In this document: piece after piece, positions 596 to 5,816 of the stretch | Layout: each line of letters begins with the position of its first letter | Numbering within the stretch: position 1 is the first letter of the stretch | From: Candidatus Iainarchaeum sp. | GTDB taxonomy: Archaea; Iainarchaeota; Iainarchaeia; Iainarchaeales; 0-14-0-20-30-16 | Reading direction: 5' to 3' | Length of the DNA: 14,402 nucleotides | NCBI GenBank assembly: GCA_903916665.1 | Contig: CAIWXP010000131.1 | Coordinates: 1 to 14,402, forward strand | Program-made: the position numbers and the translations under genes | The notes under the pieces: model-generated | Database searches by the model: none | Seen by the model: the letters and a program-made list of their open reading frames with translations, nothing else | Told to the model about the DNA's origin: nothing

Positions 596-1576
596 TTAAT
601 ATTTTCCAGGCAAGTATTCTTGTTTAATAGTATATTCCAATCGATGTATTCTGTGATAGCCTATATCTTTATCAAACCTATCTCTAAATTCTTTAATAAT
701 TTTATTTATTTCTGCTACATCTTTCACAATAACTTCTATTTCAACTTCTGGACCGCCAATAGTTTCCATTCTATAGGTTACATTTTTATGTTGCTTTGCA
801 ATAATGTTTATTTGATCTAGATTATCTAAATTATTTAAATAAAAATCAATTTTATAAAATCTATATCCTAATTTGTTAGTATCAATTAATGCATTGTATC
901 CTAAAATTATTTTATTTTTTTCTAATTTCTTAATTCTATCTATTATTGCTTTTGGTGTTAGATTTAATTTTTTTGCAATTGATACTGATGTTTCATTAGC
1001 TTTTTTAGTTAATATTTCTAATATTTTATAATCTAATTTATCATAATCTATTGCAGTTTCTTTTCCAACTATTTTCTCATCGTAGTTTATTTCATCCATT
1101 AATACTTTCATGGGATAATGTATTTGACTAACTGATTCATAGATTTCTTGTTTTAAAATATATTTTTTATATTTAATTAAAAAAGGTTTCCATTTATCAT
1201 AAAACTCAGGAATACTTTTTATCCATATATAAAATCCAATATCTACTTCGCCCTCAAATTTAACAATCCACATAAATAAAGGGTTTAATTTTAAATAATT
1301 ATAAATTTCCTGTTCTTTTTGTAAAGTTATATTTTGCCATTTAATATATATTCTAATTGAATTGTATCCTAAACGTCTCCAATCTATTAATGCGTGATAA
1401 CTTAAAATTATTTTATTCTTTTCTAGTTGATTAACTCTATATTTTACTACTTGTTTGGATATTTTATGTTTTTTGCCAATTTCAGATAATGGCATTCTAC
1501 AATTCCAGCCTAGTTCAAATAGTATTTTAGAATCAATAGAATCTATAATTTTATTACTTTTTGTATCTTTTGACAT
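596..1576 (-). CDS. Tandem (internally duplicated) Lrp/AsnC-family transcriptional regulator with two HTH plus RAM modules in one chain
   Basis: Module 1 (aa ~11-155) contains IDSKILFELGWNCRMPLSEIGKKHKISKQVVKYRVNQLEKNKIILSYHALIDWRRLGY. Module 2 (aa ~178-320) contains LDYKILEILTKKANETSVSIAKKLNLTPKAIIDRIKKLEKNKIILGYNALIDTNKLGY. Each HTH is followed by a beta-alpha-beta-type effector (RAM-like) segment. The ATG is at 1576-1574. Confidence 0.85.
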   Translation of the reverse strand: MSKDTKSNKIIDSIDSKILFELGWNCRMPLSEIGKKHKISKQVVKYRVNQLEKNKIILSYHALIDWRRLGYNSIRIYIKWQNITLQKEQEIYNYLKLNPLFMWIVKFEGEVDIGFYIWIKSIPEFYDKWKPFLIKYKKYILKQEIYESVSQIHYPMKVLMDEINYDEKIVGKETAIDYDKLDYKILEILTKKANETSVSIAKKLNLTPKAIIDRIKKLEKNKIILGYNALIDTNKLGYRFYKIDFYLNNLDNLDQINIIAKQHKNVTYRMETIGGPEVEIEVIVKDVAEINKIIKEFRDRFDKDIGYHRIHRLEYTIKQEYLPGKY

Positions 1577-1596
1577 ATAATACTATAATAAGTAAA

Positions 1597-1621
1597 GATT
1601 TTTAAACATATTTTAAATATA
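1597..1621. promoter_or_regulatory. Candidate back-to-back divergent TATA boxes: TTTAAAAAT on the minus strand for the Lrp gene and TTTTAAATATA on the plus strand for the operon
   Basis: The element at 1597-1605 is centred about 25 nt upstream of the Lrp ATG at 1576, which implies a leaderless mRNA. The element at 1611-1621 lies about 40-45 nt upstream of ATG 1659/1665, and AAGGGA (1654-1659) is a possible SD for ATG 1665. The calls rest on position and composition only. Confidence 0.3.
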
Positions 1622-1658
1622 CCTCTTGTGCTCCTAGTTATTTACAATAAATTAAGGG

Positions 1659-2297
1659 ATGTTTATGAAAATTGAGAATTATAGTTATTGGTTAAAATTA
1701 TTTAATGAAATACCTATACCTAAAAATTTAATTGAAATTAAAGATTATGATTTTATAATTAAAGATAATTCTAAAGATAGGTATTGGTTAAATCATTTTG
1801 GGGTTACAAATAAAGATAATATTATATTGAAAGTAACAAAAGAAACAATTAATAAAATTGAAAGCATTAAGAAATATCTTAAAAAAGATGAAAAGATTGT
1901 AATTTTAAGTGCGTATAGAACTCCAGAATTATTGGCAGCATTATGGACCAGAAGATTAAATGATGTAATTAATAAGTTTCCAGGATATTCTTATGAAAAA
2001 CAATTAGAATTTGCGAGTAAATATACTGCATCTCCTTTTCATCCTAATTTGCCACCACATTCAAGAGGTAGTTCAATAGATGTATTATTAATTAAAAATA
2101 ATAAAATATTAAAATTTTGTAATGATGATACTGATTACAATGAATGGAGATTTGATTATTTTGAAAATAAAGATAAGAAAATTCATGAAAATAGATTGCG
2201 ATTAAAAAATATTATGTGTTCAGCAGGATTTATTCCATATTCTAAAGAATATAATCATTTTGGACTAACTTCAACATTTGAAGGTGATGATTTATGA
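1659..2297 (+). CDS. VanX/DdpX-like zinc D-Ala-D-Ala dipeptidase (MEROPS M15D-like)
   Basis: The signature residues are present: SAYRTPE (Arg87), PPHSRGSSIDVLL (His134 and Asp141, the SxHxxGxAxD-type motif) and KEYNHF (Glu197-x-x-His200, equivalent to EWWH of VanX). An alternative start ATG at 1665 has better SD spacing. The TGA stop overlaps the next gene's ATG (ATGA at 2294-2297). Confidence 0.8.
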   Translation: MFMKIENYSYWLKLFNEIPIPKNLIEIKDYDFIIKDNSKDRYWLNHFGVTNKDNIILKVTKETINKIESIKKYLKKDEKIVILSAYRTPELLAALWTRRLNDVINKFPGYSYEKQLEFASKYTASPFHPNLPPHSRGSSIDVLLIKNNKILKFCNDDTDYNEWRFDYFENKDKKIHENRLRLKNIMCSAGFIPYSKEYNHFGLTSTFEGDDL

Positions 2298-4027
2298 ATG
2301 TAAATTTAATTTATCCCCCTGTGCATATGCCTGATGTGCCTCATATTGCGGTACCTATTTTGAAAGCAAATTTATTAAAACAAGGAATTGGGTGTAAATC
2401 TTTTGATGAAAATATAAATTTTTATCATCATGTATTATCACGAAGTGTACAAAAAAATCTTTTAGTTAAATTAAATATTCCACAAAATGAGATAACTAAA
2501 ATTTTAGATAATATTCAAAGAGATTCTAAATTATTAAGAACACCTGTAGAAAGAAATCAAATTAAAGAATATTTTGAAGCTAGAATCAATATAGAAAATT
2601 CATTAAATAGATATATGAATTTTTTTTCTGGCAGATTAGGTTTAACCTATGGTAGTTTAAGTTACAATCAAAGTGATTCTGAAGATGTTTTAAAAGCCTT
2701 AGTTGATCCTAAGAAAAATCCTTATATTGGTTATTTTAAAAAAAGATTACCATTATTAATAAAAAATACAGATATAATTGGAATAAGTATCGGAATTTCA
2801 GAACAAATGATTCCTGCTTTTACACTGGCAAAATTAATTAAAGAGTATAATAAAAATATTACAATAGTTTTAGGAGGAAATATATTTAGTAGAGTTTATT
2901 CTGAAATTATTAAAACAGACTTAACCAAATATTTTGACTATTCAATTTTAAGGGAAGGTGATTTAAAATTACCAGAATTAGTTAAAGCAGTTAGATTAAA
3001 TTTAACAAAAGATAAAATAAATGAAATAATCAATGATCCTAAATTAGAAGTACCAAATTTATTTGAAGAACTAATTCCTGATTTTTCAGATTATCCTTTG
3101 AGAAAGTATTTTGTTCCTGAACCGGTTTTGCCTGTTTTGGGATGTAGAGGTTGTATTCACAATAAATGTACCTTTTGTGCCATTCCTAAAATGTATGCAA
3201 ATTGTGGTCAATTTAGACCTAAATTGCCAGAACAAGTATTAAAGGAAACAGAATTTTATTATAAACAATATGGTGTTAAATATTTTAAATTTGTTGAAGA
3301 AAGTCATAGTCCATCATTTGCAAAAGAATATTGTCAATTAGTGTTAGATAAAAAATTACCATTTAGATATGAAGCATTTGCATCTTTAGATAAATGGATT
3401 TTAGAAGATGATGCAAAACATGTTGGCAAAGTAATAATAAAATTATTATATGGTTATGAGTCATGTTCTAAAAAAACTATTGCAAATTCAGAAAAAAGAA
3501 ATTTAGACTATAACAAAGTAAATGATGTAATTAAACGAACCTATGATTTAGGGATTGCGCCATTTGTTTTTTTAATTTGTGGAATTCCGGGCGAAAATGA
3601 TGAGGATTATTATAATACAATCAATGAAGTAATTCAAAATAAATATATTAAAGATAAATTGTTGTCAGTTTATAATTTATCTAAATGGTCTAAGGATGCA
3701 ATAGATAAACAATTTCATTTAGATAAAGGATTAGAAAATATTCGTATTAGAGGAGATATATCTTGCAATTATGATTATAATTTAAATGATATTGATGCTA
3801 GAAAACAATTGTTAGAAAAAGGAAAAAAATTAAATGAATATTTAAACAAAGAACGAAAAGATTTGACAATAATTTCTGCTTTGCAACCAGCTGCAAGAAT
3901 TTATTTTTTTTCTAAATTTGGAATTAATGTTGGCGAATATATTGCGAATAATTTAAATCTTTCAGAAGAGATATACAATTTAGCAAATAGTTCTTATTAT
4001 AATACTAAAATTAATAGGTTTGATTAA
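2294..4027 (+). CDS. Radical SAM enzyme with an N-terminal B12-binding-like (class B type) domain and a non-canonical cluster motif
   Basis: The N-terminus NLIYPPVHMPDVPHIAVPILKANLLKQGIGC ... DIIGISIGISEQMIPAFTLAKLIKEYNKNITIVLGGNIFS resembles the Rossmann-like B12-binding domain of class B radical SAMs. It is followed by GCRGCIHNKCTFCAIP (Cys284/287/292/295) and a TIM-barrel-like core (YGYESCSKKT, LICGIPGENDEDY). Confidence 0.8.
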   Translation: MNVNLIYPPVHMPDVPHIAVPILKANLLKQGIGCKSFDENINFYHHVLSRSVQKNLLVKLNIPQNEITKILDNIQRDSKLLRTPVERNQIKEYFEARINIENSLNRYMNFFSGRLGLTYGSLSYNQSDSEDVLKALVDPKKNPYIGYFKKRLPLLIKNTDIIGISIGISEQMIPAFTLAKLIKEYNKNITIVLGGNIFSRVYSEIIKTDLTKYFDYSILREGDLKLPELVKAVRLNLTKDKINEIINDPKLEVPNLFEELIPDFSDYPLRKYFVPEPVLPVLGCRGCIHNKCTFCAIPKMYANCGQFRPKLPEQVLKETEFYYKQYGVKYFKFVEESHSPSFAKEYCQLVLDKKLPFRYEAFASLDKWILEDDAKHVGKVIIKLLYGYESCSKKTIANSEKRNLDYNKVNDVIKRTYDLGIAPFVFLICGIPGENDEDYYNTINEVIQNKYIKDKLLSVYNLSKWSKDAIDKQFHLDKGLENIRIRGDISCNYDYNLNDIDARKQLLEKGKKLNEYLNKERKDLTIISALQPAARIYFFSKFGINVGEYIANNLNLSEEIYNLANSSYYNTKINRFD

Positions 4028-4028
4028 T

Positions 4029-4586
4029 ATGATTAGGAATACTAAAATAGAGGATATAAACGAAATCATTGAATTAATGAAATCAGTATATTTTAATGCG
4101 CCCTATGATTGTTATTTGGATTATAATTATTGGTTAGAGTTTATAAAAAATAACCATTCTTTTGTTTATGTAATTGATAATAAGATAGTTGGGCATAGTG
4201 CATTAGAAATTAAAGACAATTTTGGTATTCTTTCAAAATCATTTGTTGATGAAAAATATAGAAATCAAGGAATATATAAAAAATTAATAGATCACAGATT
4301 AGAATTAGCAAAATCGTTGAATTTGGACTTTTTAGAAACCTATGTTACTACTCATAATATTATACCTCAAAAAATATATTTGGAAGAATATGATTTTAAT
4401 TCGTTTGGATTAAAGTTATTAGATACTTCTGATTTATTCAATAGTGGTCAAAGAACTAGTTTAGTTATACTTAGAAAGAAATTAAATAATAATTATGAAT
4501 TTAAAACAGAATCTTTAAATTTTAGTAAAATTAAATTACATCCAATTGTGGTAAAACAATTAAATTTAGATAAATATTGTTTATAA
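4029..4586 (+). CDS. GNAT-family N-acyltransferase
   Basis: The GNAT motif A region is VYVIDNKIVGHSALEIKDNFGILSKSFVDEKYRNQGIYKKLIDHRLELAKSLNLDFLETYVTTHNIIPQKIYLEEYDF. The ATG at 4029 lies 1 nt after the radical SAM TAA stop (4025-4027). The track ORF opens with TTG at 4020, which I consider less likely. Confidence 0.75.
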   Translation: MIRNTKIEDINEIIELMKSVYFNAPYDCYLDYNYWLEFIKNNHSFVYVIDNKIVGHSALEIKDNFGILSKSFVDEKYRNQGIYKKLIDHRLELAKSLNLDFLETYVTTHNIIPQKIYLEEYDFNSFGLKLLDTSDLFNSGQRTSLVILRKKLNNNYEFKTESLNFSKIKLHPIVVKQLNLDKYCL

Positions 4587-5816
4587 ATCTTGAATTTCTT
4601 TTTTTATTTTTTCAATAATATATTGACTAGTTGTATCGGGATTATTTTCTTTTAGTAACTGAATAACTGTATCAATATCAATTGAGTTTTTAAAACCAGC
4701 TTCTTGTAAATTCTTGATAAATATTTCTTTTGATTTTTCTAAAGCGTTTATTTTATCCTGTTCAAAGTTTAGGTTTTCAATTTTGTTTTTTAATTCATCA
4801 ATTTCTAATTTTTTATCTAACAATAAAATAACATTTTTAGTATCAATGTTTTTTTCATTTAAATTAGTTGTTTCATTTAACGCTAACTTGGCTGCAATCT
4901 TAACCTTTAAAACAGGATTTAATACTAATTCTTTATCGTTATAATTTACAGTAACAATATTTCCTTTTATTTCGTTTAATTTTGTATTAATTTTATTTAT
5001 TATATCTTGCTTAGTTATATTGGTTTCATTTAATTCAAAGTAATAGTAGTTTCTTTGCAAAGGAATTTCTTTGAATATTAATTCTTTTGTAATTGTATCA
5101 AAGATATAAAAACCTCTAGGTTCTAAAATTTCGTTTTTCTTAATTTGAGTAATTATTGTTGATCCAGGAATTAGAAAAGGACCAATATTGGATTTTATTA
5201 AATGTTTTTTATGAATGTGTCCATTAATATAAAGATCAAAACCTTTTGGTAGATCTTCTAAAGATAAATTAGAAACCATTTCATCATCAAAAGCTAATAG
5301 TTCATCGTAACTTTGATGAGTCATTAAAATATTTATCGCGTTATCTTTTGGCTGAAAGTCAATTTTAGAGATAACTTCTTTTGCAACTTTTTCTGGGACT
5401 CCTGCCATTCCACAGATATTAACAGTTTCACTTTCATTAGAAAAACATATTGAATTGTGTTTTAATTGATAAATATATTCTGATTTTTCTAAAACATCAA
5501 TTGGTGAAGTATAACCTTTGCCTTTGTATTCATGGGTGCCAGCAATTGCAATTATTGGCTTTAATAAATGTTTTTTTTGTTTTGTTTTAGGAATAAGTTT
5601 TTGATTGCCAATGTATTTTGCAAAAATTTGAAAAACATTGTGCATAGTTTTTTGGCTAGGCTCTTCTAGATCAAATAAATCTCCGGGCATTAATATAATG
5701 TCACAATTTTGTTCTGCATAGTCTAGTGCTTGTTGAAAGTTAATGTAACAGTCACTTTCTAAGTCTTGGGTTTCTTTGTGGCCAAAATGAGTATCTGAAA
5801 TAATTGCTATGTGCAT
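4581..5816 (-). CDS. mre11: Mre11/SbcD-type calcineurin-like phosphoesterase (DSB-repair nuclease homologue) with a Lys/Glu/Asn-rich helical C-terminus
   Basis: The phosphoesterase motifs are IISDTHFG (I), MPGDLFD (II), IAGTHEY (III, with Thr where GNHD/E normally has Asn), LMTHQS (IV) and INGHIHK (V). The ATG at 5816-5814 gives MHIAIISDTH. The track start at 5831 is TTG and would overlap the promoter. Confidence 0.8.
   Translation of the reverse strand: MHIAIISDTHFGHKETQDLESDCYINFQQALDYAEQNCDIILMPGDLFDLEEPSQKTMHNVFQIFAKYIGNQKLIPKTKQKKHLLKPIIAIAGTHEYKGKGYTSPIDVLEKSEYIYQLKHNSICFSNESETVNICGMAGVPEKVAKEVISKIDFQPKDNAINILMTHQSYDELLAFDDEMVSNLSLEDLPKGFDLYINGHIHKKHLIKSNIGPFLIPGSTIITQIKKNEILEPRGFYIFDTITKELIFKEIPLQRNYYYFELNETNITKQDIINKINTKLNEIKGNIVTVNYNDKELVLNPVLKVKIAAKLALNETTNLNEKNIDTKNVILLLDKKLEIDELKNKIENLNFEQDKINALEKSKEIFIKNLQEAGFKNSIDIDTVIQLLKENNPDTTSQYIIEKIKKEIQDL

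Follow-up and report, generated by a model that had tools for sequence, protein, structure and literature searches.

What use would an archaeon without murein have for a homologue of the D-Ala-D-Ala dipeptidase VanX, and why should its gene be coupled to those of a radical S-adenosylmethionine (SAM) enzyme and an acyltransferase? The question is raised by contig CAIWXP010000131.1 of Candidatus Iainarchaeum sp. (assembly GCA_903916665.1), which was analysed here over 14,402 nucleotides (the window). The element of interest consists of a minus-strand gene for a tandem Lrp/AsnC-type regulator and, divergent from it, an operon of three genes (the trio) encoding an M15-family, VanX-type zinc dipeptidase homologue, a class-B radical SAM enzyme and a GNAT-family N-acyltransferase. 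The four genes recur in the same order, with the same coupling, in distantly related archaeal lineages. We tentatively propose, with somewhat less than even confidence, that they serve the Lrp-controlled, cytoplasmic tailoring of a small peptide or amino acid that contains a D- or otherwise unusual residue and is supplied non-ribosomally. The features of the locus are as follows.

596–1576, minus strand: Lrp/AsnC tandem regulator gene, 326 residues (open reading frame list and sequence reading)
1577–1658, no strand: divergent control region, 82 bp, 21% GC, common to the Lrp gene and the operon
1659–2297 (likely start 1665), plus strand: VanX-type (M15D-like) zinc dipeptidase homologue (Pfam, residues, fold)
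2294–4027, plus strand: class-B radical SAM enzyme, predicted, 577 residues (Pfam, NCBIfam, fold)
4029–4586, plus strand: GNAT-family N-acyltransferase, 185 residues (Acetyltransf_1)

Gene anatomy and predicted proteins

Both junctions of the operon were read directly from the sequence. The M15 and radical SAM genes overlap in an ATGA (2294–2297), and the stop codon of the radical SAM gene (TAA, 4025–4027) is separated by a single T (4028) from the start codon of the GNAT gene (ATG, 4029–4031). The open reading frames (ORFs) agree with this reading. The three coupled plus-strand genes with ATGA and TAA-T-ATG junctions, and the tandem Lrp/AsnC gene diverging from them across an 82-bp spacer, thus stand as given in a preliminary description of this DNA. 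The M15 gene probably starts at its second ATG (1665), since the database gene call has 210 residues, the orthologue in L002 begins with MKID, and an AAGGGA lies 7 nt upstream (related loci and proteins are designated by L and P numbers, respectively). The GNAT gene starts at ATG 4029 (MIRNT) and not at TTG 4020 of the ORF finder, because MIRNT matches the orthologue starts MIRET and MIRRT. The GNAT gene shares its last 6 nt (4581–4586) with the 3' end of the convergent Mre11 gene, and no terminator-like structure was found in 1400–4800, where terminator scans are uninformative in such AT-rich archaeal DNA; the end of the operon thus lies within the adjoining gene. The Lrp and M15 proteins of the window are present at 100% identity in the public protein collection (NCBI and ENA). 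Neither protein search retrieved the radical SAM protein of the window, which may be uncalled or missing in that collection.

The M15 protein retains the fold, zinc ligands, catalytic glutamate and transition-state arginine of the VanX/DdpX branch (PF01427, MEROPS M15D). In the alignment, the zinc ligands H134, D141 and H200, together with E197 and R87, correspond to H116, D123, H184, E181 and R71 of VanX, and this catalytic set is invariant in 5 orthologues and in a 14-sequence alignment. The AlphaFold2 (AF2) model has a predicted local distance difference test (pLDDT) score of 89.5, and VanX (PDB code 1R44) is its only PDB neighbour at E ≤ 0.001, with a template-modelling (TM) score of 0.61–0.64 over 191 columns; ChiX and VanXYG come next. 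The family profile detects VanX with an E value of 3e-17, while the other M15 branches reach no better than about 0.07. The identity to VanX is about 18–27%, with the same length and single-domain architecture. The protein is best classed as a superfamily or subfamily member, and not as a VanX or DdpX equivalog. Its subfamily comprises about 15 clusters at 36–49% identity, below which matches drop to E = 8e-9. Enzymes of the VanX branch are dipeptidases with a closed, dipeptide-sized pocket. No signal peptide is seen on reading the sequence, which suggests a cytoplasmic enzyme. Unlike vanX and ddpX, the window gene has no vanH/vanA or ddp transporter linkage and is coupled instead to an archaeal radical SAM gene; the VanH and VanA domains expected of a vanHAX-type cluster were found neither in the window nor at any of the related loci.

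The radical SAM protein matches Pfam Radical_SAM with 41.2 bits (cut-off 29.5) and consists of an N-terminal Rossmann-like domain with a helical insert of about 120 residues, the core, and a helical C-terminal domain. Its cluster motif, Cx4Cx2C (C287/C292/C295; canonical spacing, Cx3Cx2C), is invariant in 38 relatives. The AF2 model (pLDDT 92.3, predicted TM score 0.93) is closest, by both Foldseek and profile comparison, to TsrM, TokK, CysS and OxsB, followed by AprD4, MiaB and MgmA. The three-domain architecture is common to the window enzyme and the first four structures (Foldseek probability 1.0, E 1e-12 to 1e-10), which are those of cobalamin-bound enzymes and are also detected at the profile level. 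However, the identity is only 9–15%, the TM score is about 0.5, and the window enzyme has a large helical insertion. The architecture is thus predicted to be class-B; the use of cobalamin is putative. Two observations were made among more distant relatives. In L004 (117–7896), a 29% identical relative is encoded inside a Liv-type branched-chain amino-acid ATP-binding cassette (ABC) transporter operon, between a 470-residue protein without a family match and a 56-residue ORF that overlaps its stop. Six proteins of 1,400–2,300 residues (P0226, P0228, P0229, P0230, P0242 and P0244), scoring just below the orthogroup, contain four to six separate matches to this radical SAM profile each and are apparently fusions of several class-B radical SAM copies.

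The GNAT protein exceeds the cut-offs of three Pfam families: Acetyltransf_1 (43.8 bits, cut-off 20.7), Acetyltransf_7 (29.1, cut-off 27) and Acetyltransf_10 (27.6, cut-off 23.6). More specific matches are weak, the best being RimI, ArsN2 and Sat in NCBIfam and, among structures, 4MBU and 3F8K, the latter deposited as 'protein acetyltransferase'. Orthologues are 33–39% identical and have in common an N-terminal MIRxT and a C-terminal tail, S-K-[IVL]-K/R-L-H-P-x-V-V. Motif A of GNATs generally reads Q/R-x-x-G-x-G/A. The corresponding region is R78-N-Q-G81-I-Y83 in the window and RNQGIY, RDEGIY or QNRGVF in orthologues, so that the last position is aromatic and not Gly/Ala. Elp3 also joins a radical SAM and a GNAT domain in the N-to-C order that matches the gene order of the window and the radical SAM-GNAT fusions P0037 and P0041; however, it is a marginal match only (Foldseek E about 6e-4, profile E about 6e-4), is not class-B and acts on tRNA. 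The fused GNAT of P0037/P0041 was considered as an orthologue of the module GNAT, which would have provided a Rosetta-stone link, and was rejected, as BLASTP gave motif-level similarity only (E = 0.064).

All three enzymes are predicted to be active, since the M15 set and the cysteine triad are invariant, the GNAT is above cut-off and the folds match. The calls of a dipeptidase, a radical SAM enzyme and a GNAT, made originally from the DNA alone, hold under hidden Markov model, residue and structure comparison.

The regulator consists of two complete Lrp/AsnC units fused in one chain. The Pfam families HTH_AsnC-type and HTH_24 each match it twice, and its profile matches true regulators in both halves (FL11/PH1519 at 2e-15, LrpA at 9e-14, LrpC and Lrp), with residues 164–289 aligned to residues 18–143 of FL11 and residues 3–118 to residues 1–114 of LrpA. 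Pfam AsnC_trans_reg was not detected in the window protein; it is listed for relatives such as P0162, P0168 and P0175. The protein resembles FL11, LrpA and Ss-LrpB in that both halves match full-length Lrp, its gene is divergent from the target, and orthologues have a palindrome between TATA boxes; it differs in carrying two complete units in a single 326-residue chain. Lrp-like enzymes of the siroheme-decarboxylase type (AhbA/B, NirDL) work alongside radical SAM enzymes. This assignment was rejected on the scores (AhbA 45.8, cut-off 140; AhbB 25.6, cut-off 125; NirdL-like_HTH 22.3, cut-off 27), and no siroheme decarboxylase structure is present among the 25 PDB profile hits of the protein.

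Conservation of the module and its control region

The order Lrp(-)/M15/rSAM/GNAT (rSAM, radical SAM) was found at L001, where the flanks are thymidylate synthase and SNO/SNZ genes; at L002 and L003, with the Lrp gene truncated at the contig end; at L014, L015 and L018, on 23 contigs and in one reference metagenome-assembled genome (MAG); and at L030 and L031. At L005, the M15 gene is followed by the radical SAM gene, and the Lrp promoter module and an AsnC-like N-terminus lie at the contig edge. The four-gene order thus occurs in at least six further lineages, with enzyme identities of 33–48%, differing flanks and 4-nt overlaps kept, and every trio with a visible upstream region has a tandem-Lrp-type gene. 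The same order and overlaps at such low identity, in differing flanks, argue for a functional module and effectively exclude chance. We take it to be a module of DPANN archaea of the Woesearchaeota type, kept by a handful of these tiny symbionts. The adjacency, including the divergent Lrp gene, had been set beforehand as a test of the cassette idea, and it proved to be conserved in distant lineages. A variant is found at L006 (2906–5046), next to archaeal LonB, where a tandem-Lrp paralogue of about 30% identity is directly divergent from a 41% identical radical SAM relative, without an intervening M15 gene; this radical SAM gene is cut off by the end of the contig.

The module is rare. A word-index search returned two close relatives of the radical SAM enzyme at 35–36% identity, and HMMER found about 4 clusters of its orthogroup (466–1069 bits) among 1.84 billion cluster representatives; below the orthogroup lies a large family (1,067 proteins at E ≤ 1e-30). 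Wherever the context is visible, the M15 subfamily and the radical SAM orthogroup co-occur. A radical SAM pattern scan of reference genomes found nothing, with patterns that are narrow, since an Lrp-anchored scan recovered a trio-bearing MAG. PADLOC and PHROG searches returned nothing for the M15 and radical SAM proteins and only generic HTH hits for the Lrp protein and generic acetyltransferase PHROGs for the GNAT, and a defence-system or phage affiliation of the module was rejected for want of any specific match. Literature searches on the gene combination, on DPANN and VanX, and on TIGR03975 gave nothing relevant. The combination matches no curated model set, defence or phage library, vanHAX cluster or searched literature, and the earlier view of a self-contained cassette outside the described pathways holds, as no characterised cluster was matched. 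We regard it as a very rare conserved cluster of known enzyme families in an unexpected host group, none of the proteins being classed as an equivalog of a characterised enzyme.

No transporter lies within the conserved module in the loci compared. Likewise, no conserved small ORF was found outside the four genes, whether by comparing 1,052 small ORFs of 8 trio loci with one another or by local inspection. A cis-encoded precursor peptide was rejected as a candidate, the small-ORF hits being shadow ORFs inside the Lrp, M15 or radical SAM genes. One such ORF, of 66 residues and antisense to the Lrp gene (window 620–820, plus strand), has 'conserved' counterparts in L001, L014 and L030 (E values between loci reach 3e-27); as its whole length falls within the well-conserved coding sequence of Lrp, the simplest reading is a shadow ORF in AT-rich DNA and not a gene.

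The regulator gene has a much wider distribution. About 80 orthologue clusters at 50–62% identity come from Woesearchaeota/Nanoarchaeota-type MAGs, the orthologues carrying the names Woesearchaeota or Nanoarchaeota, and across the loci compared Lrp is better conserved than the enzymes (57–63% vs 33–48%). Most orthologues have partners other than the trio, disproportionately radical SAM operons. At L012 (3877–5877) and L013 (3613–5872), the partner is a 491-residue, weak Radical_SAM/BchE-like enzyme that follows an unannotated protein of 173 or 256 residues; at L019 (5094–7021), it is a 514-residue TIGR03975/PhpK-like radical SAM enzyme. A 383-bp gap (6639–7021) separates Lrp from the radical SAM gene at L019 and contains a 35-residue ORF (6809–6916, minus strand), a possible precursor. 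Unrelated genes are divergent from the orthologue at L016 and L020–L029. L030 (403–7884) and L031 (317–6883) each contain two adjacent tandem-Lrp paralogues, about 30% identical, with a separate radical SAM operon diverging from either one. In one case this operon is the trio; in the other, it encodes a methyltransferase-like protein of 212–218 residues and a PapB-like radical SAM enzyme of 350–360 residues, which is of the peptide-maturase type. A 100-residue gene downstream of Lrp at these two loci was considered as a module member and rejected, as it was not found in other instances. Overall, these archaea seem to have combined tandem-Lrp genes with radical SAM cassettes more than once.

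A conserved control region accompanies these arrangements. Orthologous spacers of 93–95 bp contain, in order, an Lrp-side TATA box ATTTATATA, GGAAA, a palindrome TTTTGTCAAAA, an operon-side TATA box TTATTATA and an inverted repeat AACTAnnnTAGTT, which abuts the operon ATG in trio loci; this repeat (AACTAnnnTAGTT / TTACTAnnnnnTAGTAA), the second one beside the palindrome, adjoins the start of the divergent gene. On the Lrp strand, the module TTTTGTCAAAA-n-GGAAA-n-ATTTATATA lies about 45–55 nt before the ATG in most orthologues, at a fixed distance and whatever the partner gene. The conserved upstream module was located as follows.

L001, 4434–4528: conserved upstream module
L002, 361–453: conserved upstream module
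L030, 4847–4940: conserved upstream module
L014, 5907–6000: conserved upstream module
L012, L013 and L019–L029: conserved upstream module also present

Among 19 orthologue loci, the palindrome is exact in 13 and has one or two changes in 4 (L002, L019, L025 and L031), with no match in the window and L016; it is also present in the partial locus L005. The distance from TATA to ATG suggests leaderless or very short-leader transcripts. The architecture, being independent of the cargo, has the look of a regulatory 'socket', and the module looks like a putative conserved autoregulatory operator/promoter.

In the window itself, the spacer keeps a TATA-like element TATATTTAAAATA (about 1612–1624) and one TAACTA half-site, and has an extra stretch of about 23 nt before the operon with the Shine-Dalgarno-like AAGGGA. 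It can be read as a rearranged version of the family architecture with a degenerate operator. The preliminary description had seen back-to-back TATA boxes here. Such strings are not significant on their own in a spacer of 21% GC, and the window version is rearranged, but orthologues do have a conserved promoter architecture of this kind. The related claim that the control region links Lrp to the operon is borne out to the extent that Lrp stands beside every visible trio; however, Lrp is not private to the trio and, with the palindrome lost, regulatory coupling is less certain here than in the relatives. A sigma-70-type scan of the spacer gave matches at or below the shuffle expectation and is uninformative in AT-rich archaeal DNA, and the inverted repeats found in the window spacer are of low complexity only.

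Proposed function and competing explanations

The pathway that we tentatively favour would run as follows; its substrate class, the sequence of its reactions, any role of cobalamin and the ligand of the regulator are inferred. The tandem Lrp, divergent from the translationally coupled operon, would set its expression, presumably in response to an amino-acid-like ligand, as Lrp-family regulators classically sense amino acids, and the coupling would yield three cytoplasmic enzymes in fixed proportion. The VanX-type zinc enzyme would hydrolyse a dipeptide-sized amide bond of the D-Ala-D-Ala-like kind. The class-B radical SAM enzyme, which may descend from a lineage of peptide C-methyltransferases, would generate a 5'-deoxyadenosyl radical and, probably with cobalamin, methylate an unactivated carbon or functionalise it in some other way. 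The GNAT would transfer an acyl group from acyl-CoA to a free amine and so cap it. We favour a small substrate over a cis-encoded ribosomally synthesized and post-translationally modified peptide (RiPP) because the VanX branch consists of dipeptidases, there is no conserved small ORF and no RiPP recognition element (RRE), and Lrp proteins sense amino acids. A free substrate is also suggested by the L004 relative inside a Liv-type operon and by a Liv-type transporter near the module at L030. A parallel in logic is phosphinothricin biosynthesis, in which PhpK/BcpD reportedly acts on an N-acetyl amino acid made with the GNAT Pat/Bar. Both systems would combine a class-B radical SAM methyltransferase with an amino-acid N-acetylating GNAT, with a peptide in the pathway; there are, however, no phosphonate genes at the window module, and the resemblance is in logic only.

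Several observations weigh against this proposal, or against parts of it. The M15 protein passes the PF01427 cut-off only marginally (29.5 bits, cut-off 27), and its best NCBIfam matches are far below theirs (DdpX 38.6 bits, cut-off 176; VanX 24, cut-off 320). The VanX-type motif is SxHxxGxAxD, whereas all members of the subfamily read P-P-H-S/A-R-G-x-x-[IV]-D. The first serine is thus replaced by proline (PPHSRG) and, as D142 of VanX has no conserved counterpart either, specificity for D-Ala-D-Ala is doubtful. Pfam B12-binding reaches 27.4 bits in the radical SAM protein, under the cut-off of 32.1, and AprD4, which reportedly works without cobalamin, is among the structural neighbours. The best curated match of the radical SAM enzyme is a RiPP C-methyltransferase model, TIGR03975 (94.3 bits, cut-off 281.85, residues 3–444), and the wider family consists of RiPP-type peptide C-methyltransferases, with several relatives in RiPP maturation contexts. 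As to the regulator, the Lrp-anchored scan yielded 13 reference-genome loci, only one of them with the trio; of 12 reference genomes with the regulator, a single one has the trio as well. The Lrp gene is a widespread Woesearchaeal gene that is not private to the trio, and its divergent partner varies. In addition, the palindrome TTTTGTCAAAA has 0 matches at ≤1 mismatch anywhere in the window.

The strongest competitor, which we consider unlikely and yet well worth weighing, is a RiPP-like or protein-modification system with a substrate encoded elsewhere, in which the radical SAM enzyme would C-methylate residues of a ribosomal peptide or cellular protein, the M15 enzyme trim it, by removing a leader or cutting beside an unusual residue, and the GNAT acetylate the new N-terminus. 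It draws on the TIGR03975 alignment, which extends over the N-terminal domain, unusual for its long helical insert. The score is only a third of the cut-off, and that of the L030 orthologue is 65.3 bits. Cx4Cx2C is common across the family; the proteusin enzymes PoyB and PoyC are of the TIGR03975 type. Relatives point the same way. P0005 (L010) belongs to a textbook RiPP cluster with two 32-residue ORFs, an rSAM-SPASM gene, a C39 peptidase and ABC exporters; P0006 carries PqqD (PF05402), an RRE; and the fusions P0037 and P0041 are followed by an rSAM-SPASM gene. The adjoining Lrp cassette of L030/L031, with its methyltransferase and PapB-like peptide-maturase enzyme, also fits, as do the weak matches of the GNAT to protein N-acetyltransferases (RimI, 3F8K); GNATs acetylate exposed N-termini in some RiPP pathways. 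What tells against it is the environment of the window enzyme. Its partners are an M15 enzyme and a GNAT and not epimerase, SPASM or C39 exporter genes, the trio loci compared show no conserved small ORF outside the four genes and hence no adjacent precursor, the radical SAM protein has no PqqD/RRE domain hit in Pfam, and C-terminal extensions of some relatives are absent from it. Furthermore, the module GNAT has no specific relationship to the one fused in P0037, the closed pocket of M15D enzymes is dipeptide-sized, and these enzymes are not known as leader peptidases.

The affinities of the radical SAM enzyme still point to peptide chemistry over wall-fragment salvage, despite the absence of a precursor or RRE. 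In a more speculative scheme, in our estimate a long shot, a RiPP-type class-B methylase would have been recruited to a precursor-independent pathway, where it would act with the VanX-type dipeptidase and the GNAT on a free D-residue dipeptide or amino acid, for example by radical C-methylation and N-acetylation; the operon would be an interchangeable cargo of the tandem-Lrp socket.

Salvage or detoxification of bacterial wall material appears improbable, by a narrow step more so than recruitment. In this reading, which the preliminary description had put forward, a murein-less symbiont would cleave imported D-Ala-D-Ala and N-acetylate or convert the D-amino acid for use or disposal. The fold and catalytic residues are of the VanX/DdpX type, DdpX and PcgL serve D-Ala-D-Ala utilisation in enterobacteria, GNAT D-amino-acid N-acetyltransferases of yeast detoxify D-amino acids, and the hosts are DPANN archaea, which depend on scavenging. 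Such a scheme leaves no role for the radical SAM enzyme, which is the largest and best conserved of the three, and it finds no transporter in the conserved module. The serine of the VanX motif that is replaced here is the carboxylate-contacting one, and the module is far too rare for a general scavenging trait of DPANN archaea.

It is very unlikely that the operon provides self-protection against, or activation of, a Trojan-horse dipeptide antimetabolite, with the M15 enzyme freeing the warhead amino acid, the GNAT neutralising it by N-acetylation and the radical SAM enzyme modifying it, in a manner reminiscent of phosphinothricin or arsinothricin chemistry. Matches to PhpK (second-best curated match, 61 bits, cut-off 600), to Sden_1168-family P-methyltransferases and to ArsL, together with those of the GNAT to ArsN2 and streptothricin acetyltransferases, are compatible with it, but all are far under their cut-offs and no better than those to other class-B or GNAT families, no phosphoenolpyruvate mutase, arsenic or non-ribosomal peptide synthetase genes occur in any instance, and PADLOC gave no defence-system match. 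Finally, a chance or syntenic juxtaposition beside a conserved regulator gene, for which the highly variable divergent neighbour of the Lrp orthologue and the window spacer without the family palindrome might be cited, is scarcely credible when the same three genes keep their order and 4-nt overlaps in at least six lineages at 33–48% identity with unrelated flanks, and when the tiny M15 subfamily and the radical SAM orthogroup co-occur wherever the context is seen.

Genomic surroundings and significance

The window has a GC content of about 25%. The cassette and Lrp gene are at 23.3%, compared to 27.2% for the remainder, with 11–14% vs 14–27% at third codon positions. They are thus slightly AT-richer yet inside the range of the window genes, which gives no strong sign of foreign origin and agrees with the earlier remark that the composition of the operon is like that of its surroundings. 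The neighbours (Mre11, CTP synthase, L44e, a RecJ/GAN-like nuclease, a cation diffusion facilitator (CDF) transporter and tRNA-Phe) bear out the archaeal housekeeping flanks described before, and an Rfam scan of the window found tRNA-Phe only. To the left of the Lrp gene (1–595), the 3' end of an ORF running off the left edge (frame 1, end about 285) is followed by a 106-residue ORF with a TTG start (275–595), of higher GC content and without a family match or a counterpart in related loci, whose stop abuts that of Lrp. A 167-residue protein without a family match (8485–8988, minus strand) has the N-terminus MFKFDRKGQSSSVFNLLIAALVSLAILGLLL, suggestive of a class III signal peptide of the archaeal type IV pilin-like kind with a hydrophobic helix after it. 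The CDF transporter (9922–11313, plus strand) is unusually long (463 residues) and matches the cytoplasmic ZT_dimer domain in three stretches rather than one.

All four proteins of the module are small or medium-sized and confidently modelled, which makes heterologous reconstitution realistic. Whatever the substrate, the tandem Lrp with its conserved palindrome and two leaderless-type promoters forms a compact and tractable regulatory unit. It carries different radical SAM operons across Woesearchaeota and so offers a handle on regulation in a group almost without experimental genetics. Should the module process D-amino-acid peptides, it would for the first time place an archaeal VanX-type enzyme in a functional context and extend the tasks of cobalamin-type radical SAM enzymes beyond the biosynthesis of antibiotics and RiPPs, and it would bear on how genome-reduced DPANN symbionts exploit or sense their bacterial neighbours. 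If a RiPP-type methylase has indeed been recruited, for example to wall-scavenged material, a murein-less, auxotrophic DPANN archaeon would possess a new route of amino-acid salvage or signalling.

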